In this document: in pieces, positions 1 through 11,461 of the stretch
How positions within the stretch are numbered: the first letter of the stretch is position 1
Layout of the letters: each line of letters begins with the position of its first letter
Virus record (IMG/VR): IMGVR_UViG_2565956612_000010
Source of the DNA: a virus
Taxonomy: Duplodnaviria > Heunggongvirae > Uroviricota > Caudoviricetes
DNA length: 11,461 nt
Direction: 5' to 3' (one strand)
Notes under the pieces: generated by a model
What the model was told of the DNA's origin: nothing
The model's database searches: none
Seen by the model: the letters and a program-made list of their open reading frames with translations, nothing else
Program-made: the position numbers and the translations under genes

Positions 1-141
1 CTACTGCTTACACTGTAAGAACGCCGCAAACTCCGCTCCCCAGAAGCTCATCCGTATTTCGCACAGCGAACCGTGCAGCATCCAGATGATGAGGATTGCC
101 GTCACGCAGAACGTGATGGCCGTAAGCGATTTTTGCGACAT
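1..141 (-). CDS. hok: Hok/Gef-family type I toxin, 46-aa small membrane peptide
   Basis: Reverse complement of 1..141 gives ATG..TAG encoding MSQKSLTAITFCVTAILIIWMLHGSLCEIRMSFWGAEFAAFLQCKQ. It has an N-terminal hydrophobic helix and the SLCE(I/L) and E-x-AAF-L-x-C-K motifs recalled from HokA/HokC/HokE. Below the 60-aa cutoff of the ORF track. Confidence 0.7.
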   Translation of the reverse strand: MSQKSLTAITFCVTAILIIWMLHGSLCEIRMSFWGAEFAAFLQCKQ

Positions 142-271
142 AGCACTTGCTCCTTTTCCGGAGAGGCGCTAACCTTTCACTTGTCAAGGTAATGCGGTTA
201 GGGCCTCGGTTAAACAGAGATGTTTTCCGGGGCCTTTCCACATCTGGCCTTCGGGTATTCCCTCCGACCAT
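8..271 (-). CDS. Putative mok-like reading frame overlapping hok in another frame
   Basis: 87-aa ORF with an ATG at 269..271 covers the whole hok ORF in a different frame, as mok does in hok/sok loci. The protein has no recognisable fold; the call rests on position only. Confidence 0.3.
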   Translation of the reverse strand: MVGGNTRRPDVERPRKTSLFNRGPNRITLTSERLAPLRKRSKCYVAKIAYGHHVLRDGNPHHLDAARFAVRNTDELLGSGVCGVLTV

Positions 272-331
272 CAGCCGAAAGGCACCCGCGCGTAATCTAT
301 CGCTTTTTTGTTACTCCGGCAATTCTGCCTG

Positions 332-592
332 TTAATTCTGAGGTAAAGGCAAACTCATCTGATTGTTTCCCCTGTGTGAAGCTGGCAGCTCATGCCACGG
401 GATACCATCTGAAGAGTGAACGCCGGAGGCGTGTTTCGATGTGAATTTATGGAAAGCTTCCAGTGTTGAGAAGCATACACCGCATTCCAGGTTGTTACAC
501 TGGTAATACTTTTGCCGCACGGTGTTTGAATCATTTTCCGGACGACTGGTGCGGATACGGGCAGATGCGCCACAAAGCGGACAACGGAACAT
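332..592 (-). CDS. ogr: Ogr/Delta-family zinc-finger late-gene transcriptional activator
   Basis: N-terminus MFRCPLCGASARIRTSR...YYQCNNLECGVCFST matches P2 Ogr (MFHCPLC...RTSR...YHQCQNVNCSATF) with four Cys in C-x2-C...C-x4-C spacing. Strong SD AAGGGAGG sits 5 nt upstream of the ATG on the - strand (593..605). The C-terminus is longer than P2 Ogr. Confidence 0.8.
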   Translation of the reverse strand: MFRCPLCGASARIRTSRPENDSNTVRQKYYQCNNLECGVCFSTLEAFHKFTSKHASGVHSSDGIPWHELPASHRGNNQMSLPLPQN

Positions 593-793
593 AGCGACCT
601 CCCTTAACGTGGTGCTGGTTCTATTTTAAGTTGTACTGGCTCAGACTCCAACAGCCACTCCGTCTTGAGCAAAAAGTTAGCGCAGGAGTGCATGTTTAAA
701 CCTAATTGCTTTAAATATAGTGATTCGGATAACCAGATGACTTGTGTTTATATATGATAACGGTAAAAATCTACTCTCTATGAGAATGTTGAT

Positions 794-1954
794 GTGAAAA
801 TGGTCACTATGAAGATAACTAAGACAAATTTTGGTATAACTATTAATGATACTTTAATAACGGATTTTCGCGATGTAGTTAATGAAAGAGATTTTGTTTA
901 TAGTTACTTCATAAACAGAAATGGTAAAAATCAGTTCAGCCCTATTTGTTCATGCATGGATTGGATTACTGTTTCTGTACGCTATCTTATGAACATCCCT
1001 GAAATATCTGAAGACATTGATATTAAAACTATGCAGATTTATACTATTATATCATCAATCGATATAATAGTGGAAGCGGTGCGGCAACTCCATCGTATTA
1101 TTGAAAGTGACAATAATTTTATGAAATGGCCTTTTAAAGGCTCTGTTGATATTTTTAAGGATAAAATACATTATCTTTCGCATGAGGATGATGACTCTTA
1201 TTTTAAGAGTATTCGCGCTATTTTTGGTGCTCACCCTACGAATCTTAAAAATAACCACGGGGAGAGATTATTTGCGAGCTGGCCTCATTTTTATGCACTT
1301 AATAATAATGATTTTACTATAAGTCTTTATAATAACAAACCCGGTGTGGATGATATTATTTTTGGTATTAAATTTAACGAGCTTATCTCATATGTTGAAA
1401 GTAGGTATAAATATCTAGAAAAACTAATGGACTCTATAGTGGTAATTCGTAACAACCATTACGATGTTTTGTCCGCGCAAGTTATATCATCCACCGATAA
1501 CATTTATGATGAGTTGAGGCTGCTTCTTTCAGAAGTCGCTATACGAGGTAATAATGATTATTACCGAATGCAATTAGAAGAGTTAATTCATTTGTTTGAT
1601 GGTTGTGTTAAAGAGAAGCATCTTCAAGATGAAGTAAATGAGTTTTTGAGTAAACTCTATCCGATCGTTTTAGAGATTAGAAATAATCTTCAGAAAATGA
1701 ATGTTGAAGATTTAACAACTACTTGTGATGTGATTATTTCGAGGCTTCCTACAGGTGAATTAAGTTATGTTCTTCAGAAGATGTTTTCTTGTCTCCACTC
1801 AGATAGGGATGATCCATTGAAGGATTATTACCTTGATACTTTAAATAAATATACTGAAGGTTGGTATAATTTTTGCTCTGCAGATAACGATAGTACAACC
1901 TTGCTAAAACTTAGAATGATGCTGTATCGGTATCATCAGCAAAAACTTGATTAA
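794..1954 (+). CDS. Hypothetical protein; AT-rich orphan accessory gene (moron), candidate anti-phage defence or abortive-infection protein, family unassigned
   Basis: Long uninterrupted ORF of 386 aa in a region visibly far more AT-rich than the flanking phage genes. N/I/K/D/Y-rich protein, no Walker A motif seen. Track start is GTG at 794; in-frame ATGs at 800 and 809 are alternative starts; no strong SD. It is antisense to the flanking ogr and D. Confidence 0.6.
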   Translation: MKMVTMKITKTNFGITINDTLITDFRDVVNERDFVYSYFINRNGKNQFSPICSCMDWITVSVRYLMNIPEISEDIDIKTMQIYTIISSIDIIVEAVRQLHRIIESDNNFMKWPFKGSVDIFKDKIHYLSHEDDDSYFKSIRAIFGAHPTNLKNNHGERLFASWPHFYALNNNDFTISLYNNKPGVDDIIFGIKFNELISYVESRYKYLEKLMDSIVVIRNNHYDVLSAQVISSTDNIYDELRLLLSEVAIRGNNDYYRMQLEELIHLFDGCVKEKHLQDEVNEFLSKLYPIVLEIRNNLQKMNVEDLTTTCDVIISRLPTGELSYVLQKMFSCLHSDRDDPLKDYYLDTLNKYTEGWYNFCSADNDSTTLLKLRMMLYRYHQQKLD

Positions 1955-2030
1955 CGATGAGAAATAATGTCAGCGGATTTTTTATAATCTTGCATATCAA
2001 TTCATCGTTAGGTTTATGATTCCTATTTCG

Positions 2031-2069
2031 GGCACAGAGCAAACAGGTATATTATGTTGGCTCTGTGCC
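2031..2069. other. Perfect 10-bp inverted repeat (GGCACAGAGC / GCTCTGTGCC) with 19-nt loop between convergent genes
   Basis: Read directly from the sequence; lies between the stop of the AT-rich ORF (1954) and the stop of D (2085). No U-run follows on either strand, so it is not a classical intrinsic terminator. Confidence 0.4.
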
Positions 2070-2084
2070 GTATCTTCCCACCAT

Positions 2085-3191
2085 TTAGGTCTGCGCAATC
2101 CATTCAGGGATTTTTGTTTCAAGTTCAAGCTGCGTGGTAAAGCCGCTGTTATCAATGGTGTGCTCGGCTTTTGCAATAATCCAGTCCTGATTATCAATCT
2201 CGCTTTTAAATCCTGTTACCGTGCCATGCATTTCGGGGTAGAGTTCTGCGCGTCCACGTGCCAGTGTGATGGAGAACGCTGCGGCTCCGCGTTGTAGCTG
2301 CTGCCACTTTGCCGCCGCTGCGCGTCTTGCTGCCTGCTCGTTCTGATAAGTCTTGCGTAACACAAACACATTGCCTTCCGCGCCTTCCATATAATCACCT
2401 TCACGGCTGCTGCTTTTCTCCTTTTTGGGTTTTGGCGGTTTACGGCGTTTTACGCTGACTTTTTTCTTTTTCCCGTAATTAAGATCAAGCCAGTAGGCGC
2501 GTACCCCCGTATACGCCTCGCGGTCAGCAATACGGAACTGATGGCGATCGCTGCTGCTGCGTGTAATGGCGAACGAGGGCAACGGCTGGCCCTGTGCGTT
2601 CACGCCACCACCTGGCATGATGAATAACAGATTGCCGCTTTTTACCGTGGTGATTGCGCCCAGCATTTCCGCCATGCGCGTAAGGAAGGACATGTCGCTT
2701 TCTTCGGTCTGGTCGGCGTGGTCGATTTCAATATCCATCAGCATTTCGCTGATTTGCGGTTTCAGGCCGTATCGGTGAGCAATTGCAGACACCACGCGTT
2801 CAACGGTCACATCATGCCAGGATACTTCGCGCTTGACGTTAAATTCATCCCGAAAATCTGCGCTTCTGGCTGAAATGGTCAGTCTGTCGGGCGGTCCTTC
2901 ATGAGCAATTTCATCAACAATGTAAGTGCCTTTTTCTGTCAGCGGTTCTCCTTTCCAGCCAATGAGAACCGTCAGGCGCGCGCCCCGTGGCGGTAGCTGC
3001 AACTGACCATCCGCATCATCCAGCGTGATGGTGAGCTGGTCCGCTTCAAATCCCCGGTTGTCGGTCAGTGACAGGCTCATCAGGCGCTCTGCCACGCCGG
3101 ACAGCGTTTCCCCCTCCGCGAGAATATCAAAATCCGGCATTTTCACGGGGTCTGTGCCCTGACTGAGCAATTGCATGGTGGTGTCGGTCAT
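2085..3191 (-). CDS. D: P2 gpD-like tail protein (late control gene D family)
   Basis: Matches P2 gpD at LTDNRGFEADQL, SWHD, FLTR and the lysine-rich KKKVSVKRRKPPKPKKEK stretch. Start placed at the internal ATG 3189..3191 (MTDTTMQ...) because it follows the strong SD GGGAGGG; the upstream ATG at 3210..3212 is the track start. Confidence 0.88.
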   Translation of the reverse strand: MTDTTMQLLSQGTDPVKMPDFDILAEGETLSGVAERLMSLSLTDNRGFEADQLTITLDDADGQLQLPPRGARLTVLIGWKGEPLTEKGTYIVDEIAHEGPPDRLTISARSADFRDEFNVKREVSWHDVTVERVVSAIAHRYGLKPQISEMLMDIEIDHADQTEESDMSFLTRMAEMLGAITTVKSGNLLFIMPGGGVNAQGQPLPSFAITRSSSDRHQFRIADREAYTGVRAYWLDLNYGKKKKVSVKRRKPPKPKKEKSSSREGDYMEGAEGNVFVLRKTYQNEQAARRAAAAKWQQLQRGAAAFSITLARGRAELYPEMHGTVTGFKSEIDNQDWIIAKAEHTIDNSGFTTQLELETKIPEWIAQT

Positions 3192-3347
3192 CTTTCCCTC
3201 CCTGTGCAGCATGGTCGCATGTGCGTGCGGAGGGGGTTACTGCTTTTTGTTGTCGCCGTGGCGGGAGAACGGCGCAGGGGTGAGATTACGCGCGTGGTGG
3301 GTGATGATTGTTGCCGAATCATTTAACGGATACAAGGGGCTGAAGCT

Positions 3348-4532
3348 ATGAGTGAAACTCGTTTTCATGGTGCCCGTGTTACGGAAAGTACCGACCTGGT
3401 AACAGCGATTAATGATGTTGATTCCAGTGTTATCGGTATCGTGGCAACGGCGGATGATGCGGATGCGGAGCTGTTCCCGCTGAACAAGCCCACACTGCTG
3501 ACCCGCGTCAATGACGTGCTGGGAAAATGCGGAACAACGGGGACGCTTTATCGTGCGCTTAAGGCCATCGCAGACCAGGTGAGCACAAAGGTGATCGTCG
3601 TTCGCGTGGCTGAACACAAAGAAGAAGACGGAAAAACGCAGGATCAACTGGTTATCGGTGGTTCTGAATCTGACGGCAGCTATACGGGGATGTATGCGCT
3701 GCTTGTTGCAGAGCAGGATGAAAGCATCGGATACCGTCCGCGTATTCTGGCCGCGCCGGAGCTGGACACGGAGGCGGTAACAAAATCCCTGTGCGTGATT
3801 GCGGGTAAACTGCGCGCGTTTGTGTATGCCTCATGTCACGGCTGTAACACGATGGCTGAGGCGATTACCTACCGCCAGAAATTCAACGAACGTGAGGTGA
3901 TGCTCTTATGGCCGGACTTCATCGCCTACAACCCGAAAAGTGGCAAAAACGAAACGTTCCCCGCGCCTGCCTATGCGTGCGGCCTTCGTGCGTACATTGA
4001 CCATGAGCAGGGCTGGCACAAATCGCTGTCCAACGTTCCGGTTAAAAATGTGCTGGGGATGTCCAGGCATGTGTTCTGGTCGTTGCAGGCCGAAGACAGT
4101 GATGCCAACAGCCTCAACAACAAAGAAATCACGACCATTATTCGTCGCAACGGGTTCCGCTTCTGGGGCAACCGCACCCCGGAAACGAACGCCTACATCT
4201 TTGAGGTGTATACCCGAACCGCACAGGTGCTGGCTGATTCAATTGCGGAAGCGCAGTTTGAAACCATCGACAGTCCACTGACGCCTGCGAACGTGAAAGA
4301 TGTTATCAGTGCCATCAGGGCAAAACTGGATTCACTGGTTACTGCCGGGAAACTGATTGGGGCGTCGTGCTGGTATGACGTGGTGGATAACGGCACCACG
4401 AATTTACGTCAGGGGCGCGTGCGTATTCGCTACAAATATACGCCTGTTCCCCCGCTGGAAGACATGGAGCTTTACCAGTCGTTTACTGATGAATTCTTTG
4501 GTCCCGCATTTGCGGTGCTGGGAGGTGCCTGA
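3348..4532 (+). CDS. FI: Contractile tail sheath protein (P2 gpFI family)
   Basis: 394 aa; conserved blocks shared with P2 FI (DADAE-FPLNKP, QGWHK-LSNV, IRR-GFRFWGNRT, YTPVPPLE). SD AAGGGG 8 nt upstream. Its stop overlaps the FII start (TGATG). Confidence 0.95.
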   Translation: MSETRFHGARVTESTDLVTAINDVDSSVIGIVATADDADAELFPLNKPTLLTRVNDVLGKCGTTGTLYRALKAIADQVSTKVIVVRVAEHKEEDGKTQDQLVIGGSESDGSYTGMYALLVAEQDESIGYRPRILAAPELDTEAVTKSLCVIAGKLRAFVYASCHGCNTMAEAITYRQKFNEREVMLLWPDFIAYNPKSGKNETFPAPAYACGLRAYIDHEQGWHKSLSNVPVKNVLGMSRHVFWSLQAEDSDANSLNNKEITTIIRRNGFRFWGNRTPETNAYIFEVYTRTAQVLADSIAEAQFETIDSPLTPANVKDVISAIRAKLDSLVTAGKLIGASCWYDVVDNGTTNLRQGRVRIRYKYTPVPPLEDMELYQSFTDEFFGPAFAVLGGA

Positions 4533-5044
4533 TGGCTGTACCAAAACATCTTCGCTTTTTTACGCTGTTTGTGGATGGTGAAAACGAAGTGGGTAAGGTG
4601 ACGTCTGTCACTCTACCTAAGCTGACGCGCAAAACCGACAGCTACCGGGGTGGTGGCATGATGGGTGCGGTAAGTATTGATCTCGGTCTGGACGACTCCG
4701 CGCTTGATGCGAGCTTTGTCATGGGGGGCGCAGTTCGTGAGCTGTTCCTTAAGTATGGCGGCACGATTGACGGCACGCTGCTGCGTTTTGCGGGTGAATA
4801 CTACACCGATGCAGAAAGCGACCTGTATGAAGTCGAAATGCGCGGACGTGTGACGGAAATTGATATGGGGGAAGCCAAACAGGGCGAAGCCACATCACAC
4901 ACTTACGCCATTAAAAACACCTACTACAAGCTGAGTGTTAACGATCGCCCGTTGTGGGAGATTGACCTGCTGAACTTCATTTACCGGAAGGACGGCAAGG
5001 ACATTGTGCCCGATCGCATCCGTTCCGCGCTCGGGCTTGGCTGA
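4532..5044 (+). CDS. FII: Tail tube protein (P2 gpFII family)
   Basis: 170 aa; SVTLPKLTRK, YRGGG and VEMRGR blocks match P2 FII; translationally coupled to FI. Confidence 0.95.
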   Translation: MAVPKHLRFFTLFVDGENEVGKVTSVTLPKLTRKTDSYRGGGMMGAVSIDLGLDDSALDASFVMGGAVRELFLKYGGTIDGTLLRFAGEYYTDAESDLYEVEMRGRVTEIDMGEAKQGEATSHTYAIKNTYYKLSVNDRPLWEIDLLNFIYRKDGKDIVPDRIRSALGLG

Positions 5045-5098
5045 TAAGTAATATGCAGGCGGCGCAGTGCGTCGCCTCTGACTGAAAGGAGTTTCCTG

Positions 5099-5464
5099 AT
5101 GAAAGAGACGAAAAACATCGATACCGAAAACACGGTAGTTACTGACACTGTGAAAGAAACCAGTGAGCGTGGCGTAAAACTTACCCAACCAATTGAGCGA
5201 GGCGGCGAAAAAATCACGTATGTGGAGATCACCGGGGCTATTGAGCAGGCTGGATCTCTGCGAGATTTGTCGCTGTCTGATGTGCTGAATCTGAAAGCGG
5301 AATCCATGTTTACGCTGCTGTCACGCGTGACATCACCGCGACTGGATGAAGTGACGATCAAAAAAATGGCATCCCGTGACTTTATTCAGTTATGTGTGGT
5401 TGCCGTAAATTTTTTGAGCGGTGCGGACTCTGGCGGGAAGAACGAACAGGCGACGGAAGCCTGA
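5099..5464 (+). CDS. E: Tail assembly chaperone gpE (zero-frame product)
   Basis: 121-aa ORF directly after FII with SD AAGGAG (5086..5091); it contains a slippery heptamer near its 3' end and is followed by an overlapping -1 frame ORF, the P2 E/E' arrangement. Confidence 0.85.
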   Translation: MKETKNIDTENTVVTDTVKETSERGVKLTQPIERGGEKITYVEITGAIEQAGSLRDLSLSDVLNLKAESMFTLLSRVTSPRLDEVTIKKMASRDFIQLCVVAVNFLSGADSGGKNEQATEA

Positions 5465-5628
5465 TCACGGTTGTGTGCTTTGAGCACATAGAAGACTTTG
5501 TGGCGGATATTGCCGCCATTTTTAACTGGTCGCCCGCCGAAATCTTCATGATGACGCCCGGCGAAGTGGTTAGCTGGCGTGAGCGGGCGGCACTTCGCAG
5601 CGGGAATGCAGACAATGAAGACTCTTGA
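5099..5628 (+). CDS. gpE+E' frameshift fusion chaperone (E codons 1-106, then 70 codons of the -1 frame; about 176 aa)
   Basis: Deduced from the slippery site and the open -1 frame; analogous to P2 E/E' and lambda G/GT. Its 3' end overlaps the start of T. Confidence 0.6.
5410..5416 (+). other. Programmed -1 ribosomal frameshift slippery site T_TTT_TTG
   Basis: Heptamer TTTTTTG in the E zero frame (codons TTT 5411..5413, TTG 5414..5416). The -1 frame opens at 5416 and runs to a stop at 5626..5628, the same frame as track ORF 5392..5628. Confidence 0.65.
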
Positions 5629-8422
5629 TATCCGGGTCGCTTTCAGCGCCGTTGACAGGCTGACCCGGCCTGCCGAAAACGCCCGCCGCCTGATGGGGCA
5701 GTTTGGTGACTCCATCCAGCGAACGCAGGGGGCGATCAAAAATCTCGAGCGTCAGGCGCGATCATTTGAGCGCGCCCGCGACGCTGTCAGTAAAGCGGAT
5801 GCGGGTATCGTGAAAGCACGACGCCAGCTTAACGCCCTTAATCAGTTACAACGCACGGGTACAGTGCTCAGCGAAAAACAACAAAAGCTGATGCAGCAGT
5901 TAAGCACCCGGCTTGAACGCCTGAATGAATCGCGCACACGGGAAATTCAGAAAATGCGGGAGCTTGGCGGAGAGCTGATACGCCACGGCATTTCCCTGAC
6001 AGGCAGCGATAACACCATCCAGCAGGCCATCAGACGCACCGAACAGTACAACAACCAGCTTGAACGCGAACGGCAGGCGCTTGCGCGTGTAACGCGGGCG
6101 CGTGAGCGGTATTCGCGCGCGCAGGAAACCGCGGGAAAACTGAAAACAGGTGGTGCGCTGGCAATTGGTGCGGCAGCGGCGGGCGGCTATGCTGCCGGGC
6201 GTTTTTTGCAGCCTGCGATCGGGTTCGGCAAAGAGATGTCCCGCGTTCAGGCACTGACGCGAATCGACAAAAACAGCCCGCAGTTTAAGGCGCTGCGTGA
6301 GCAGGCGTTAAAACTTGGCTCTGAAACACAGTTTACTGCGAGTGATGCCGCCAGTGGGCAGAGCTTTCTGGCAATGGCTGGTTTTACTCCGCAGGCCATT
6401 CAGGCCGCATTGCCCGGTGTTCTTAATATGGCGCTGGCAGGTGGCGTCGAACTCGGCGAGACGGCGGATATAGGCTCCAATATCCTCACACAGTTCAACC
6501 TGACAGCCGATCAAATGGACCGGGTGGGCGATACGCTGACAGCAGCATTTACCCGGACCAATACTGATTTACGCGCGCTGGGCGAAACCATGAAGTATAC
6601 CGGTCCGGTTGCCGCAAAACTTGGTATCAGTCTTGAAGAAGCGGCGGCCATGGCCGGGATGCTTGCCAATAATGGTCTTCGCGGAAGCGATGCTGGCACG
6701 GCCATGCGCGCAAGTCTGTCCCGCCTTGCATCACCGCCAAAAGCTGCGGCTGATGCACTGAAAGAGCTGGGGGTGTCAGTTGCTGACGCCAGAGGCAAAA
6801 TGCGCCCGATGGAGGATGTGCTGCTTGATCTCTATAAGGCGACACAAAAATACGGACAGGTGGACCAGGTCTCCTTCTTCAAGGACATCGCCGGAGAAGA
6901 GGCGTTCGTTGGTTTGCAGACGCTTGTTGCGGCGGCTGGTTCAGGAGAGCTGCAAAAACTGACCAGAGAACTGCAGGGGGCAAGGGGAGAGGCCGATCGC
7001 GTTGCAAAAGTAATGGCCGATAATCTTGATGGGGACCTGAAAAATCTCGACAGCGCATGGGAAGGTCTTCGTATTCGCATCAGTGATCTGGTTGACGGTC
7101 CGCTGCGTTCTGTCACGCAGTGGCTCACGCGGGTGCTTGAAAAAATCACCTCGCTGGCGCAGGCCCATCCGGTACTGACGCGCCAGCTACTGATAGCAGG
7201 CGGTGCGTTGCTGGCAATGACTGCAACGATTGGCTCGTTGTCGCTGGTTATTGGGGTGCTTTACGGAAAGCTGGCCACCCTGCGTCTTGGTTTTGACATT
7301 CTTACCCGGTCAATGAATGTCGTCCGGGTGTTGCCTGCGCTGTGGGGAATGCTGACGGGTTCTGTTTCTTTGCTGGGAGGCGCTATCGGGGCGCTGTTCA
7401 GTCCGGTTGGATTGATTGCTGCTGCGTTTGTGGCTGCGGCGGTTCTCATCTGGAAATACTGGGAACCCATTAAGGCGTTTTATGCCGGGGTGTTCAACGG
7501 GATTATGGAAAGGCTGACCCCGTTGCGCGAAACCTTTGAACGGTTTGGTCCTGTTTTTGACGCAATCGGAAGCGGGATCAGCCAGGTGTTTAACTGGTTT
7601 AAATCGCTGCTGTCACCGATGGAGTCCAGCAAGGAAACGCTGGATAAATGTACCAGTGCTGGCGAGATATTCGGTAACGTTCTTGGCGGTGCGTTACAAC
7701 TTGTTCTGACACCTGCAAAAATGCTACTGGATACGCTGGCGTGGATACTTGAAAAACTTGGCGTCCTTCCGGATGAAGCGGAAAGGGCACGCAAGGAAAT
7801 CGAAGACGCACAGCGTGCGGTCATTCTTCAGGACAAGGTTGCCTTACTTCAGGGGGACCTGGCGAAAATCAATCCGCCGAAGCCTGTGGAAAATGGCAAT
7901 GGCACCGGAGGTGATAAACCCAAAGACAACAAACCGCTCACAGACAGCAATACCGGGACGCTACGCAGACTCAGCAAAATTGCTGATAACACAGGTAAGC
8001 TGGTTGATGAGACGAAAAAACGCATTGGCCCCGGCGATATTGTCTTTAAGAACCTGCCCCGCGCACTTGCTGTTCGTGGGGAGTGGCAGGAGCGGAAGAT
8101 TGCGCAGGTCAGTAAGCCTGCCCCCGCAATTAATATCACACCCGTGGTCCCGGCTCCGCTGCCTCCGGCGCTGGTCCCTGTTGTTGCGGCCAGCTCCCGC
8201 CCGGTGGCGGAGGCCATACGATCTCCAGTGGCATCAGTTCCTGTAACTTCCCGTAACCGGGAGCCTGTTGCCTCCGGATTTGGTGGTGAAATTCATGTTC
8301 ATCTGCATAACGTTGTTACGCAGAATCCCCGCGAACTGGCGAAACTGGTCGGTGAAATGGTCAGGGCAGAAATGGAACGGCGCGCCCGTGCCGGGCGTGG
8401 CAGTTTTTACGATAAAGATTGA
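5615..8422 (+). CDS. T: Tail tape measure protein (P2 gpT family)
   Basis: About 935-aa ORF with a coiled-coil-rich N-terminal half, hydrophobic glycine-rich central segments and a Pro/Ala-rich C-terminus, in the tape-measure position between E/E' and U. Start is ambiguous: track GTG at 5579, ATG at 5606, and ATG at 5615, which has GGGA 9 nt upstream. Confidence 0.9.
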   Translation: MKTLDIRVAFSAVDRLTRPAENARRLMGQFGDSIQRTQGAIKNLERQARSFERARDAVSKADAGIVKARRQLNALNQLQRTGTVLSEKQQKLMQQLSTRLERLNESRTREIQKMRELGGELIRHGISLTGSDNTIQQAIRRTEQYNNQLERERQALARVTRARERYSRAQETAGKLKTGGALAIGAAAAGGYAAGRFLQPAIGFGKEMSRVQALTRIDKNSPQFKALREQALKLGSETQFTASDAASGQSFLAMAGFTPQAIQAALPGVLNMALAGGVELGETADIGSNILTQFNLTADQMDRVGDTLTAAFTRTNTDLRALGETMKYTGPVAAKLGISLEEAAAMAGMLANNGLRGSDAGTAMRASLSRLASPPKAAADALKELGVSVADARGKMRPMEDVLLDLYKATQKYGQVDQVSFFKDIAGEEAFVGLQTLVAAAGSGELQKLTRELQGARGEADRVAKVMADNLDGDLKNLDSAWEGLRIRISDLVDGPLRSVTQWLTRVLEKITSLAQAHPVLTRQLLIAGGALLAMTATIGSLSLVIGVLYGKLATLRLGFDILTRSMNVVRVLPALWGMLTGSVSLLGGAIGALFSPVGLIAAAFVAAAVLIWKYWEPIKAFYAGVFNGIMERLTPLRETFERFGPVFDAIGSGISQVFNWFKSLLSPMESSKETLDKCTSAGEIFGNVLGGALQLVLTPAKMLLDTLAWILEKLGVLPDEAERARKEIEDAQRAVILQDKVALLQGDLAKINPPKPVENGNGTGGDKPKDNKPLTDSNTGTLRRLSKIADNTGKLVDETKKRIGPGDIVFKNLPRALAVRGEWQERKIAQVSKPAPAINITPVVPAPLPPALVPVVAASSRPVAEAIRSPVASVPVTSRNREPVASGFGGEIHVHLHNVVTQNPRELAKLVGEMVRAEMERRARAGRGSFYDKD

Positions 8423-8434
8423 GGAGTCATGGCC

Positions 8435-8923
8435 ATGATGATGATCTACGGCATGTTTGTTTTTGAGCTGCGCACGCTGCCGCATCAGCAGTTACAGCAA
8501 AACAAAAGCTGGCGGCATGTGAAAAATGAACGCGTTAACCGTTCAGCAGGCTGGCAGTATATCGGCGCAGGTGATGATCGCATTGTGCTTTCCGGCGTGC
8601 TTTATCCTGAAATTACAGGTGGCGAAGTGTCGCTTTCGTTGCTGACCACGCAGGCATATACAGGACGCCCCTGGCCTCTGATTGATGGTGTCGGGCAGAT
8701 TTACGGCATGTATGTACTGACTGAAACGAATACGACCCGTTCCGAGTTTGATCGCTATGGTAAGGCGAAAAAGATAGAATTTTCACTGACTCTTGAACGC
8801 TGTGATGAGGATTTGCGGGAGCGCCTGCAATCCTCATCGTTCAGCGATATGCTGTCCGGCTTCAAAGATAAAGTGACATCATCTCTTAACAGCGCGGCCA
8901 GCTCCGTTAAAGGGCTGTTTTGA
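8435..8923 (+). CDS. U: Tail protein gpU
   Basis: MMMIYGMFVFELRTLPHQQLQ aligns with the P2 gpU N-terminus (MMMVLGLFVFQLKTLPYQQLQ). SD GAGGAG (8421..8426) lies 8 nt before the ATG at 8435; the track start at 8429 is too close to the SD. Confidence 0.9.
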   Translation: MMMIYGMFVFELRTLPHQQLQQNKSWRHVKNERVNRSAGWQYIGAGDDRIVLSGVLYPEITGGEVSLSLLTTQAYTGRPWPLIDGVGQIYGMYVLTETNTTRSEFDRYGKAKKIEFSLTLERCDEDLRERLQSSSFSDMLSGFKDKVTSSLNSAASSVKGLF

Positions 8924-8930
8924 TTAACGC

Positions 8931-8960
8931 AAAACCGCTAATGGTCAGATTAGCGGTTTT
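8931..8960. terminator. Putative bidirectional intrinsic terminator (12-bp perfect stem AAAACCGCTAAT / ATTAGCGGTTTT, 6-nt loop)
   Basis: Hairpin between convergent U (stop 8923) and the invertase (stop 8950..8952), flanked by T-rich and A-rich runs usable on both strands; the invertase stop codon lies inside the stem. Confidence 0.55.
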
Positions 8961-9549
8961 CATTTTCCTGAGTCTGCCTGGTTGTTTCTTCAGCCTGTAT
9001 ATCGCCTACAGGGTGATAACGATAAATCGTCGATATGCCGATGTCGTAAATGATCGCCAGTTGTTTCCTGTCATGACCGTTTTTAATCAGCCTCGCTATT
9101 TGCTCGTGTTGTTCTTTTGTCAACTTCGGGCGACGTCCGCCAATGCGTCCTTGTGCGCGTGCTGCTGCCAGCCCGGCCAGTGTACGCTCTACAATTAATT
9201 CACGTTCCATTTCGGCTAAAGCCCCCATGACGTGAAAAAAGAAACGCCCCATGGGTGTTGACGTGTCAATGCTGTCCGTCAGACTACGGAAATTAACACC
9301 TTTTTCCCGCAATTCCTCAATAAGCGTGATCAGGTGTTTCATACTTCTGCCCAGTCTGTCCAGCCTCCAGACAACCAGCGTATCTCCTTCTGATAGCGTT
9401 CTGAGCAGTTTTTTCAATCCCGGTCTGGTTGATTTCGTTCCGCTGATTTTATCTTCAAAAATCAGTTCACATCCTGCGCAGTTCAGTGCATTGCGTTGTA
9501 AATCCGTGTTCTGGTCGTTTGTTGACACACGAATATAGCCAATTTGCAT
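8950..9549 (-). CDS. Serine DNA invertase (Hin/Gin/Cin/Pin family)
   Basis: MQIGYIRVSTNDQNTDLQRNAL... has the catalytic Ser in the YIRVST motif, and the LVVWRLDRLGRS and DTSTPMGRFFFHVMGALAEMERELIVERT blocks are near-identical to Hin. Start at ATG 9547..9549 is preceded by SD AGAGGA; the 43-codon N-terminal extension in the track is an artefact. Confidence 0.93.
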   Translation of the reverse strand: MQIGYIRVSTNDQNTDLQRNALNCAGCELIFEDKISGTKSTRPGLKKLLRTLSEGDTLVVWRLDRLGRSMKHLITLIEELREKGVNFRSLTDSIDTSTPMGRFFFHVMGALAEMERELIVERTLAGLAAARAQGRIGGRRPKLTKEQHEQIARLIKNGHDRKQLAIIYDIGISTIYRYHPVGDIQAEETTRQTQENENR

Positions 9550-9603
9550 AAAAAACATCCTCTTTGTTTCGTGAAAAATACAGAGTTGGTATAGGTAGGG
9601 ATA

Positions 9604-9629
9604 AAAACGAAAACGTTGGTTTGGGGGAA
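9604..9629. other. Candidate 26-bp invertase crossover site, left (hix/gix/cix-like), core TT at 9616..9617
   Basis: AAAACGAAAACG-TT-GGTTTGGGGGAA. The inner half-site is the exact reverse complement of the inner half-site of the right-hand site; the ...AAACC-AA-GG... centre resembles hixL. Confidence 0.5.
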
Positions 9630-9838
9630 GGCTCTGCATTGCCTGTTGGTGTACCGGTTCCATGGCCCACCGCCACACCGCCAGCAGGCTGGTTACAGTG
9701 CAACGGAGCTACGTTCACCAAAGAACAATATCCTGTTCTGGCCAGAGCCTACCCGACCCTCCGTCTTCCCGATTTGCGCGGTGAGTTTATCCGTGGATGG
9801 GACGACGGGCGCAAGATTGACGAGGGGCGTAAGTTGCT
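9616..9838. repeat. Inverted repeat, left copy (about 220 bp), encoding the shared N-terminal part of the fibre-tip cassettes
   Basis: Aligned by eye to the reverse complement of 11010..11232; includes a 94-bp perfectly identical core at 9721..9814. Both copies encode GLGEGSALPVGVPVPWPTATPPAGWL...RGEFIRGWDDGRK. Confidence 0.85.
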
Positions 9839-10094
9839 TTCATGGCAGAAAGGTACACTGGTCGGCGGTCATGACGATAACGATTCTGCGCTTGATATCT
9901 CGTACATGAGTAACGGAAATAATATTGACTATGGCGGCGATAAGGTGTTTGCGGGGAATTACCGTAGCGATTATTTGTGGTACGCAATGCTGGGTGGAAC
10001 AAACAGTCGCGCAAAAGCCGAATTAAACGGAGCATTCTTTAACATAACCCGCCCCCGCAATATCGCGTTTAACTATATCGTGAGGGCGGCGTGA
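9618..10094 (+). CDS. Silent alternative tail-fibre C-terminal cassette (start-less; expressed only after inversion fuses it to H)
   Basis: Frame is open from the crossover core to a stop at 10092..10094; there is no ATG or SD, and the track 'start' at 9564 is TTG inside the invertase leader. The encoded tip shares the IR-encoded N-terminal block and the C-terminal RPR-IA-NYIVRA motif with the H tip but differs in between. Confidence 0.75.
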   Translation, partial: GLGEGSALPVGVPVPWPTATPPAGWLQCNGATFTKEQYPVLARAYPTLRLPDLRGEFIRGWDDGRKIDEGRKLLSWQKGTLVGGHDDNDSALDISYMSNGNNIDYGGDKVFAGNYRSDYLWYAMLGGTNSRAKAELNGAFFNITRPRNIAFNYIVRAA

Positions 10095-10100
10095 TACCGT

Positions 10101-10715
10101 TCAACTGGCAAGTGCCAGTGGCGCTTCCGGCCAGCTGATTTCAGGTGCCTTGCTGATATCCAGTGCGTTCAGCTCGTCGATATAATCCAGCACGGCGTTC
10201 AGTTTTGCCGTTTCTTCTGGTTTCAGACTGCGACCTGCCCGCAGTTTGAGGTTGATGGGGTCGATGGACTTCATCGCCTGATCCACCCGTTTCTGGCGTT
10301 GCAGTCTGGCAGTCTCCAGTTCTGCGGCTCGCTGCCGTTCAGTATCGGTTACCCACGCCTCACCGTTCCAGGTATCCCATGGCGTGGCTGGCTGTTTTGT
10401 GGTGGTGTCCGCCGGGTAATCACCCGGTTGGGTAATCAGAACAGGGTTACCGTTCTCCGTGCTGTATACCGTCTCGCCGCGGTGATCAGGCACATGCTCC
10501 CACCCGTTCAGCGTGGCAGTCCGGCAAACCACGTAACCCGAAATTGCCTCCGGCGGTGCATCGGCGCACGAATGTGCCGGAGTACCCACCCCAAGGGCGA
10601 GATACTCCACAGAGGATGAGGTGTATTCCCGGGTTTCCTCGTCATAGTGATATACAGTGATATCGCCCGCTACAGTGGCGATACCGTTTTCATCCAGAAC
10701 TGCAGTGTTACTCAT
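10101..10715 (-). CDS. Tail fibre assembly chaperone (Tfa, P2 gpG / Mu U-like)
   Basis: 204-aa ORF directly downstream of H with stop/start overlap TAATG at 10713..10717; composition and position are typical of Tfa proteins. Confidence 0.85.
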   Translation of the reverse strand: MSNTAVLDENGIATVAGDITVYHYDEETREYTSSSVEYLALGVGTPAHSCADAPPEAISGYVVCRTATLNGWEHVPDHRGETVYSTENGNPVLITQPGDYPADTTTKQPATPWDTWNGEAWVTDTERQRAAELETARLQRQKRVDQAMKSIDPINLKLRAGRSLKPEETAKLNAVLDYIDELNALDISKAPEISWPEAPLALAS

Positions 10716-11461
10716 TAAACTGCCCTCACAATGTAATTAAGTGCAATGCTACGGGGTCTGACAGTGATACCCTTCGCATACCCGCTTCTGATAGAGGTCA
10801 GAATAGTAGCCTGCATACCATTGTCTGACATTGTTATGACAGGATCGCTGAATGTTGTCCCGTCCGGCATTTTAAAGCTGCCCTCACGAAGGTCTGTAAT
10901 GGAATCTTCATTGTTGAATCCCATGCCGACTATCCCCGAGGTTCCCGTAGTGTCCTGGTTATAATAATCCAGCATTGCTGTTCTTAACAGCGTTGCCCCT
11001 TGTGCGGACAGCAACTTACGTCCTGTATCAACTTTGCGCCCGTCGTCCCATCCACGGATAAACTCACCGCGCAAATCGGGAAGACGGAGGGTCGGGTAGG
11101 CTCTGGCCAGAACAGGATATTGTTCTTTTGCAAAGGTGCGCCCGTCGCACTTTAACCAGCCTGCTGGCGGTGTGGCGGTGGGCCATGGAACAGGCACACC
11201 AACAGGCAGTGCAGAGCCTTCCCCCAAACCAAGGTAATTGAGGACATCTTTTATACTGCCCTTAGCGATAATAGCGCGACCAATAGCTGTAAGGGTTGCC
11301 AGCGCTGCGCGGTCTGCTCCGGTAAAATAAGGCAACCGATCTGCTGCAGTGGCAAGTCCTGCCAGAGCAGTGAGCGTGGCATCTGCCGGTTGTTTTCCGT
11401 TTGCCAGATCGTATGCAGCCTTGACCGCTTTCGGTGTGGCGGCCAGTATTTCAGACGTGCT
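10715..11461 (-). CDS. H: Tail fibre protein H, 3' portion (N-terminus beyond the window end)
   Basis: The reading frame stays open to the window edge (...STSEILAATPKAVKAAYDLANGKQPADATLTALAGLATAADRLPYFTGADR...); the track start at 11335 is TTG and artefactual. The C-terminal tip lies inside the invertible segment. Confidence 0.88.
   Translation of the reverse strand, partial: STSEILAATPKAVKAAYDLANGKQPADATLTALAGLATAADRLPYFTGADRAALATLTAIGRAIIAKGSIKDVLNYLGLGEGSALPVGVPVPWPTATPPAGWLKCDGRTFAKEQYPVLARAYPTLRLPDLRGEFIRGWDDGRKVDTGRKLLSAQGATLLRTAMLDYYNQDTTGTSGIVGMGFNNEDSITDLREGSFKMPDGTTFSDPVITMSDNGMQATILTSIRSGYAKGITVRPRSIALNYIVRAV
11010..11232. repeat. Inverted repeat, right copy (within H)
   Basis: Reverse complement aligns with 9616..9838; perfectly identical core at about 11034..11127. 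Confidence 0.85.
11219..11244. other. Candidate 26-bp invertase crossover site, right, core AA at 11231..11232
   Basis: TTCCCCCAAACC-AA-GGTAATTGAGGA. The inner half is identical to the reverse complement of the left site's inner half; the outer half belongs to the constant part of H. Confidence 0.5.

Follow-up and report, generated by a model that had tools for sequence, protein, structure and literature searches.

The question raised by this locus is whether a prophage carrying two tail-fibre tips, only one of them joined to the fibre gene, exchanges them by site-specific inversion, and what such an exchange would mean for the virions it produces. The window, that is, the whole stretch of DNA analysed (11,461 nt), very probably holds a Din-family (Gin/Pin/Hin-type) inversion switch in a P88-like E. 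coli prophage, exchanging fibre tips. Textbooks describe Din-type inversion of tail fibres for Mu, P1 and e14, and tail-fibre inversion of this module type is already known; we are thus dealing with an ordinary, documented switch.

Sequence comparison assigns the host element to the P88-like E. coli prophages (Xuanwuvirus, P2-related, Peduoviridae). Positions 2-9549 share 92-95% nucleotide identity with phages 500465-2, P88, Shae_phiSM and P884B11 (93% with P88 over 2-9543), and the gene order is that of Xuanwuvirus relatives: hok, ogr, D (minus strand), FI-U (plus strand), invertase. The sequence-only reading had placed the switch within a P2-like tail module. The relationship to P2 stands, but the module is P88-like, its FI-U operon converging on the fibre operon, unlike the P2 order.

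Anatomy of the invertible segment

The features discussed below are the following:

8931..8960, no strand: hairpin with a 12-bp stem and a 6-nt loop that separates the stop codons of gpU and the invertase, found by inverted repeat search
8950..9549, minus: DNA invertase, 199 aa, Gin/Pin/Hin (Din) serine-recombinase family, assigned by Pfam, structure match and PHROG
9465..9528, minus: putative enhancer region in the invertase gene (gene nt 22-85), aligning with gin, pin and P88
9604..9629: invertase-proximal 26-bp site, core TT at 9616-9617
9613..9841, plus: left repeat arm, encoding the conserved start of the silent tip and most of its Collar domain
9618..10094, plus: silent tip cassette Hv2, 158 aa, GLGEGS...NYIVRAA, stop 10092-10094, Collar domain
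10101..10715, minus: tail-fibre assembly gene tfa, 204 aa, Pfam Caudo_TAP (3.5e-27), PHROG 105
10715..11230, minus: expressed tip Hv1, 171 aa, GLGEGS...NYIVRAV, stop 10715-10717, Collar domain
11007..11235, minus: right repeat arm, conserved start of Hv1
11219..11244: H-side 26-bp site, inside gene H, core AA at 11231-11232
11233..11461, minus: constant part of tail-fibre gene H (...KDVLNYL), containing a Phage_fiber_2 repeat

Between the two core dinucleotides lie 1,617 bp (9616-11232), the invertible segment proper. Its inverted repeat arms (9613-9841 and 11007-11235) are 229 nt long and 90% complementary, with a 91-nt identical block, and the outer ends of this repeat are the 26-bp sites. 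The invertase-proximal site reads AAAACGAAAACG-TT-GGTTTGGGGGAA and the H-side site TTCCCCCAAACC-AA-GGTAATTGAGGA. Both are intact and imperfectly palindromic, they are inverted relative to each other, and they share the same non-palindromic 2-bp core (AA/TT), the core and the inner half-site being identical between the two. A consensus for which only Mu gix and e14 pix were used (TTCYNNNAAACCNNSGT) has exactly two matches in the window with no mismatch, both at these sites and in inverted orientation, where 0.18 chance matches would be expected at up to one mismatch. The proximal site agrees with e14 pixR at 19 of 26 positions and is separated from the invertase ATG by a gap of 54 nt. The hix-like sites proposed earlier as the borders of a segment of about 1.6 kb had been positioned right to the base, and by comparison they are pix/gix-like.

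The H codon CTT (11233..11231) and the cassette codon GTT (9615..9617) place the core at the same codon phase, a claim of the sequence-only reading that proved exact; inversion therefore gives an in-frame tip exchange. When the segment is inverted in silico, the H frame reads ...KDVLNYLGLGEGS...NYIVRAA*, identical to the C-terminus of the annotated full-length H of strain M1/5 (574 aa), and the predicted in-frame fusion of the constant part of H to the cassette is thus found in an annotated protein. No start codon of H is present within the window, as the gene runs past the window end.

The ORF of the silent cassette is intact, with its Collar domain complete (Pfam Collar, 4.5e-16; PHROG 523, tail collar fibre, 4.8e-66) and a conserved C-terminal RPRNIAFNYIVRAA motif, and this cassette is the expressed tip in M1/5. 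Hv1 and Hv2 are 54% identical, with divergent central parts. Counts of synonymous and non-synonymous changes on the silent tip were uninformative, given that CMZE027 differs at only 3 codons; the same codon comparison revealed that the silent cassette of isolate U13A is a different tip. Scans of the whole window gave no Rfam match and no tRNA.

The invertase and a candidate enhancer

The Hin/Gin-like invertase expected beside the segment is well supported by its Pfam domains (Resolvase, 3.6e-51; HTH_7, 1.3e-12), by PHROG 125 (DNA invertase, 4e-98) and by end-to-end alignment with the Gin structures 4M6F and 3UJ3 (E=6e-91 for 4M6F), with Ser9 present and YIRVSTNDQ conserved. Its amino acid identity is 72% to Gin, 81.5% to Pin and 78% to Fin, and lies at 72-82% across Gin, Pin, Fin and the P88 invertase. 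The GTG start of a longer ORF (8950-9678) was rejected and the start set at the ATG at 9549 (MQIGYIRVST...). The resulting ORF is full length, has all conserved motifs, and looks like a mosaic of a Pin-like N-terminus and a P88-like C-terminus. In comparison with the common allele WP_001375851.1 it carries K62R, two residues ahead of the conserved DRLGR motif; lysine occupies residue 62 in all relatives compared (Gin, Pin, Fin, SEN8, P88 and EPEC invertases, and WP_001375851.1).

In regard to the control of inversion, a candidate enhancer was placed by reference to the Fis sites of hin and gin. The stretch 9465-9528 aligns with the region of the gin sis and hin recombinational enhancers and holds two G-N13-C 15-mers, spaced 49 bp from each other and at a distance of 88-152 bp from the middle of the proximal site; its Fis sites are predicted ones. 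The stretch is conserved, and its synonymous-codon identity is raised: the fraction of identical codons against the invertase genes of relatives is 0.5-0.7 in codons 1-40 and 0.2-0.4 downstream. In hin, the enhancer lies about 100 bp from hix (PMC3798978).

A scan of 8850-11461 for sigma-70 promoters found none, including for the invertase, and the hairpin at 8931-8960 has the appearance of a bidirectional terminator. The P2 Ogr-box pattern TGT-N12-ACA has one exact match, at 9565-9582, in the gap that separates the proximal site from the invertase start codon. This match was dropped because 2.8 chance matches are expected and its spacing is poor for either direction.

According to the mechanism proposed here, invertase dimers would bind the two 26-bp sites, one within gene H and the other just upstream of the promoterless tip cassette. 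The sites would then synapse, probably with Fis on the candidate enhancer near the start of the invertase gene, a step on which inversion would presumably depend. Cutting at the central AA/TT dinucleotide, rotation and religation would flip the 1,617 bp, so that the constant N-terminal part of H would be joined in frame either to Hv1 and tfa (the state of the window) or to Hv2 (the state of M1/5). A lysogen population could in this way make virions with either of two Collar-domain receptor-binding tips, as a bet-hedge on host range.

Both orientations in E. coli genomes

Inverted in silico at the core, the window differs from E. coli M1/5 by 4 mismatches in 11,461 nt, and positions 9613-11235 align in reverse to M1/5 at 99.75%. 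All of the 23 polymorphisms between the repeat arms switch sides together between the window and M1/5, which places the exchange within 9616-9638, the outermost 23 nt, containing the core. Among 5,426 complete E. coli genomes, about 13% carry the module, and the two orientations are about equally common (376 genomes as in the window and 357 opposite, counted by whole module). These counts replaced counts of the left junction (76 vs 222 genomes), which were rejected because their outcome varies with the tips present in a genome.

The near-isogenic isolates U13A and U14A, whose chromosome lengths differ by 1 bp, also hold opposite orientations. They differ in addition by a patch of 9 differences in the first 45 nt of one arm, which is either a gene conversion or an assembly artefact and not a clean site-specific event. 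Because of this patch the pair is not a clean single-event comparison, and it serves here only to show that near-isogenic isolates differ in orientation. The inversion that had been foreseen from one sequence thus occurs in nature in both orientations, with the exchange at the outer end of the repeat.

Direct observation of the process comes from a closely related module. In EPEC O127:H6 E2348/69, Goldberg et al. described a tail-fibre module as shufflon-like; sequencing revealed its inversions and PCR confirmed them, the variants coexisted in single-colony cultures, and flipping was far more frequent than mutation (Goldberg et al. 2014, Genome Med 6:112; PMC4272514). That module (P2-like prophage, NC_011601 1891695-1893703) has the prophage type and the gene order of the window (I, H, tips, single tfa, invertase, gpU, tape measure), an invertase identical at 197 of 199 residues, a proximal site identical at 26/26 positions and an H-side site at 23/26. 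Its repeat arms, of about 215 nt, encode the same Collar-domain start, and its tips are likewise of the Collar type, ending in NYIVRxA, with one TfaE-type tfa. On the other hand, it has three repeats, three tips and four coexisting variants, whereas repeats and tips number two each in the window; the tips differ in their variable parts, and the arms share only about 71-77% nucleotide identity. Inversion in culture has thus been shown for a near-identical module, and the copy in the window is presumably active as well.

The long arms, with their high identity and the 91-nt block, could also suggest that RecA-dependent homologous recombination between them flips the segment, the adjoining invertase being uninvolved, and the extra patch in the arm of U13A/U14A resembles gene conversion. 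The co-movement of all 23 arm polymorphisms is hard to accommodate here, as it confines the exchange to the outermost 23 nt, away from the long block. Furthermore, hundreds of genomes preserve the invertase together with both 26-bp sites, and the flipping of the EPEC module is far faster than mutation (PMC4272514). We regard such a RecA-driven origin as extremely improbable. Scarcely more credible is that this copy is a frozen relic, with the invertase (K62R) or its expression defective and the orientation fixed, although K62R occurs in none of the relatives compared and no promoter-like site lies upstream of the gene. The substitution is conservative, the ORF retains its length and all conserved motifs, and both sites are intact with identical core and inner half-site. 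The rest of the prophage region shows only 3 other base differences from M1/5, and therefore little time in which to decay. A further possibility is action in trans by other resident Din invertases, cross-complementation among Din-family invertases being established.

Tip exchange with a single assembly gene

Several known systems share parts of this layout. One of them is the P segment of e14 in E. coli K-12, in which the inner half-site and core are nearly the same (pix TTCTCCCAAACC-AA against TTCCCCCAAACC-AA in the window) and the gap between the proximal site and the pin ATG is also 54 nt. Its Pin invertase is the 81.5% relative mentioned above, its TfaE is 58% identical to the tfa of the window, and its StfE is 46-53% identical to Hv1 and Hv2 and begins with the same VGLGEGSALPVGVPVPWP junction. 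Unlike the window, e14 is a defective lambdoid element with two assembly genes (tfaP and tfaE), and its second tip, StfP, is of an unrelated class. In Mu, as in the window, the invertase (Gin, 72% identical) adjoins the G segment, the crossover lies inside the fibre gene and the sites are 26 bp long; the gix core is, however, GA/TC instead of AA/TT, and each of the tips, which are of another class, has its own chaperone (S-U and U'-S'), in contrast to the one tfa in the window. The C segment of P1, with Cin, follows the same logic as Mu G.

P88 itself (type Xuanwuvirus) has the invertase beside gpU and a convergent H operon, and the C-terminal DNA-binding region of its invertase is nearly identical to that of the window, but its sites are gix-like with a GA core, its catalytic domain is Gin-like, and it has two tfa genes and different tips. 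Likewise, in the P2-like Salmonella phages Fels-2 (Fin) and SEN8 (Felsduovirus) an invertible region of the H/G-G'/H' type adjoins the gene of a Din invertase (78% identical). Their module, however, follows the P2 gene order in lying between G and FI, and it includes two assembly genes. The parallel that the sequence-only reading drew with Mu G, P1 C and e14 P therefore holds for the crossover within the fibre ORF and the in-frame exchange, and falls short in one respect, as two tips share a single assembly gene.

How a single tfa serves the tips in both orientations is the one point of some interest. The gene, whose product is 58-60% identical to e14 TfaE and HK97 Tfa (blastp), is the only Caudo_TAP gene in the segment and is linked to Hv1, its ATG overlapping the H stop (TAATG). 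Hv2 is without an assembly gene of its own; it ends 6 nt from the tfa stop, in convergent direction, and tfa is antisense to H in the Hv2 orientation. The single-tfa layout is common to the window, EPEC and CMZE027. One explanation would be that, owing to the position between convergent late operons, one chaperone is supplied to two (elsewhere three) tips independently of orientation, as a design feature of the Xuanwuvirus type. In the orientation of the window, tfa would be co-transcribed and translationally coupled with H, while in the flipped orientation only transcripts reading through from FI-U, past the 8931-8960 hairpin and the invertase gene in antisense, could reach it. We consider this explanation unlikely; alternatively, Collar-type tips may fold without Tfa.

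The same arrangement could mean that the inversion is real but works as an on/off switch, with Hv2 fibres poorly assembled or non-functional for want of a co-transcribed chaperone, and not as an exchange of host range. In favour of this are the single tfa, antisense to H in the Hv2 state, and the fact that similar tips are each followed by a co-oriented TfaE-type gene in HK97, e14 and NC_041848, a P2-like phage from E. coli O157:H43 T22. The Hv2 state might indeed be less productive. However, Hv2 keeps its intact ORF, full Collar domain and C-terminal motif, states with tfa pointing away from H are about as frequent as the tfa-linked state, and the tip expressed in the EPEC reference sequence is likewise without a co-oriented tfa. 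Relatives also retain two silent tips without tfa, which is hard to explain if these are useless, and Tfa could be supplied in trans by other modules, several related ones being usual in E. coli genomes (median 3-4 matching places per genome). An on/off role is therefore quite improbable in our view, and exchange between two working tips, which would alter host range, is preferred.

For the annotation of such prophages, calls of a partial phage tail protein or a pseudogene beside a recombinase mark silent cassettes and not decay. Related to this, assemblies of strains with this module represent one state of a mixed population, and predictions of prophage host range should weigh both tips.

The invertible segment and its recombination sites

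The window is tail-region DNA from a P2-related prophage of the P88 type (Peduoviridae, genus Xuanwuvirus). Positions 2-9549 share 92-95% identity with phages 500465-2, P88, Shae_phiSM and P884B11, and the top chromosomal match is E. coli M1/5 (99.6%), where the element adjoins ihfA/pheT.

Features of the window
1-141, minus strand: hok
332-592, minus strand: ogr
794-1954, plus strand: low-GC orphan ORF
2085-3212, minus strand: gpD
3348-8923, plus strand: FI, FII, E/E', tape measure, gpU
8931-8960: hairpin
8950-9549, minus strand: invertase
9618-10094, plus strand: silent tip cassette (Hv2)
10101-10715, minus strand: tail-fibre assembly gene tfa
10715 to past 11461, minus strand: tail-fibre gene H, joined here to the tip Hv1

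The inverted repeats that the sequence-only reading had placed around the segment were recovered as arms 9613-9841 and 11007-11235 (229 nt, 90% complementary), whose identity starts exactly at 9616/11232, the sequence beyond being unrelated on both sides. The 26-bp hix-like sites proposed at the outer repeat ends are likewise present, and both match the consensus of the Mu Gin (gix) and e14 Pin (pix) sites with 0 mismatches. This search consensus, TTCYNNNAAACCNNSGT, was derived from the Mu and e14 sites alone, taken from the Mu and e14 genome records, and has 2 matches in the window with 0 mismatches, at 9604-9629 and 11219-11244 in opposite orientations, while 0.18 matches would be expected by chance at ≤1 mismatch.

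Recombination sites of the window and comparison sites, with the core dinucleotide between hyphens
Proximal site (invertase side), 9604-9629: AAAACGAAAACG-TT-GGTTTGGGGGAA
H-side site, 11219-11244: TTCCCCCAAACC-AA-GGTAATTGAGGA
gixL (Mu): TTATCCAAAACC-TC-GGTTTACAGGAA
gixR (Mu): TTCCTGTAAACC-GA-GGTTTTGGATAA
pixL (e14): CTCTCGAAAACC-TT-GGTTTGGGAGAA
pixR (e14): TTCTCCCAAACC-AA-CGTTTATGAAAA

As had been claimed, the crossover core falls in the same codon phase in both copies (CTT at 11233..11231 in the H frame, GTT at 9615..9617 in the cassette frame), and the predicted in-frame fusion also stands, since the H frame fused in silico is the C-terminus of the annotated 574-aa H of M1/5.

Both orientations in E. 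coli genomes

In M1/5 the segment lies in the opposite orientation: window 9613-11235 matches it in reverse (99.75%), with collinear flanks (blastn). When the window was cut in silico at 9615/9616 and 11232/11233 and the middle was reverse-complemented, 4 of the 11,461 positions (1, 9365, 9711 and 10590) differed from M1/5. There are 23 positions at which the two arms disagree; all 23 moved together between the window and M1/5, and the exchange therefore took place between 9616 and 9638. This interval is the outermost tenth of the repeat, core included, and it lies outside the 91-nt identical block, the likeliest place for homologous recombination.

A related module is oppositely oriented in U13A and U14A, two urine isolates from one study with chromosome lengths differing by 1 bp. 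One arm also carries a patch of 9 differences between these isolates within its first 45 nt (U13A locus L003, 3074-3120, versus U14A locus L004, 4635-4680), which points to gene conversion from arm to arm or to an assembly/consensus artefact of a mixed-orientation population. When a 1.9-kb query across the whole module was run against 5,426 complete E. coli genomes (coverage ≥80%), the window orientation was found in 376 genomes and the M1/5 orientation in 357; the opposite orientation could attain no more than ~39% coverage on one strand, and these counts are therefore orientation-specific.

Goldberg et al. 2014 (PMC4272514) found inversion variants coexisting inside P2-like prophages when single colonies of EPEC E2348/69 were cultured, and confirmed them by PCR. 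One of the loci, NC_011601 1891695-1893703, has three 215-bp repeats, the printed sequence of which starts with ACCTTGGTTTGGGGGAAGGCTCTGCACTGCC. That locus has the gene order of the window, an invertase identical at 197/199 aa, the same proximal site (26/26, TTCCCCCAAACCAACGTTTTCGTTTT) and an H-side site identical at 23/26, yet it holds three Collar-type tips with a single tfa, whereas the window holds two tips with a single tfa. Strain CMZE027 shows a three-tip layout like that of EPEC E2348/69, with tips nearer to those of the window. The window thus represents, with its two tips, a smaller form of a module whose phase variation has already been demonstrated.

The invertase, its candidate enhancer and the neighbouring genes

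The invertase starts at ATG 9549 (MQIGYIRVSTNDQ...) and its 199-aa product contains the Pfam domains Resolvase and HTH_7. Residues 1-185 align with Gin crystal structures (E=6e-91), the catalytic serine motif is kept, and its identity with Gin (72%), Pin (81.5%), Fels-2 Fin (78%) and the P88 invertase (81%) bears out its description as Hin/Gin-like. The protein looks mosaic, with an N-terminal/catalytic half resembling Pin and Fin and a C-terminal DNA-binding part nearly that of P88 (window 8950-9549 versus L002 8251-8838 and L006 4686-5240). P88 has gix-like sites with a GA core, whereas the sites of the window are pix-like with an AA core; the gap of 54 nt between proximal site and ATG is as in e14. 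The sole difference from the widespread allele WP_001375851.1 is K62R (window 9365, codon 62), two positions ahead of the conserved DRLGR motif, at a position that is K in every compared relative (Gin, Pin, Fin, SEN8, P88 and EPEC invertases).

The first ~40 invertase codons align with the gin and hin segment in which the Fis-dependent enhancer lies, and the fraction of codons identical among window, gin, pin and fin is 0.5-0.7 there and 0.2-0.4 further downstream. Two G-N13-C 15-mers in the same stretch lie 49 bp apart and 88-152 bp from the site centre, a spacing that agrees with the enhancer-site distance of roughly 100 bp in hin (PMC3798978). Such features are consistent with a putative enhancer in the 5' stretch of the gene, without being proof of it.

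The sole exact TGT-N12-ACA in the window, at 9565-9582, separates the invertase ATG from the proximal site. This motif is the P2 Ogr-dependent late-promoter element; as 2.8 matches are expected by chance, the match at 9565-9582 is not significant.

In P2 the genes H G FI FII E T U D ogr are all co-directional, whereas in the window (2085-8923) gpD (and ogr) are encoded on one strand and FI-FII-E-T-U on the other, with the FI-U and H operons convergent. P88 has the same strand arrangement and convergence, which is therefore a genus trait and not a local rearrangement. The overlapping ORFs 5099-5464 and 5392-5628, 5' of the tape-measure gene (window 5099-5628), sit where P2 has the gpE / E+E' programmed frameshift pair, and M1/5 has a GpE-family protein annotated at this position. 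At the prophage end adjoining ihfA, 1-141 (minus strand) is a complete Hok/Gef-family toxin ORF of 46 aa; an Rfam search of the window gave no Sok-like RNA.

The orphan ORF 794-1954 (plus strand, 386 aa), located between ogr and gpD, has 31-33% GC against 52-58% in the prophage and occupies a slot that holds a DUF3800 gene in related prophages. It had no match in Pfam, PHROGs, NCBIfam, PADLOC or PDB sequences, and its 127 homologues, every one 'hypothetical', come from Enterobacterales, Vibrio, Moritella, Methylophaga, a spirochaete and Paraclostridium. Among its invariant residues are R141, G145-A146-H147-P148 and A161-S162-P164. The ORF may be a defence gene of HEPN-like type.

Exchangeable tips and a single tfa

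Both Hv1 (171 aa) and Hv2 (158 aa) contain a phage tail Collar domain. Their overall identity is 54%, and they have in common the C-terminal NYIVRA(A/V) as well as the junction motif GLGEGSALPVGVPVPWP. Identity to both tips ranges over 46-55% for e14 StfE and for the fibre C-termini of HK97 Stf and the P2-like phage of E. coli O157:H43 T22 (NC_041848), while e14 TfaE and HK97 Tfa are 58-60% identical to the tfa product of the window. In e14, HK97 and NC_041848 each tip of the Hv class is followed by a tfa, whereas Hv2 of the window is without one; likewise, Mu, e14, P88 and Fels-2 have two chaperone genes and the module of the window has one. One tfa (10101-10715) stands beside two tips (Hv2 at 9618-10094; compare L001 18614-19746 and L013 11640-13192), and beside three in EPEC E2348/69 and CMZE027.

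In the window orientation tfa starts with an ATG that overlaps the stop of H, whereas after the flip it is directed away from H; tfa is antisense to H in every state but that of the window. If Tfa is needed for Hv2, either other prophages could provide it in trans or it could be made by read-through of the convergent FI-U operon.

The observation made from sequence is confirmed, and its interpretation is supported: a standard Din-type (Hin/Gin/Cin/Pin family) invertase switch by which a P2-related tail fibre changes its receptor-binding tip. The switch is common in E. coli, where its RefSeq annotation is piecewise, and it has been demonstrated by experiment in a near-identical copy.
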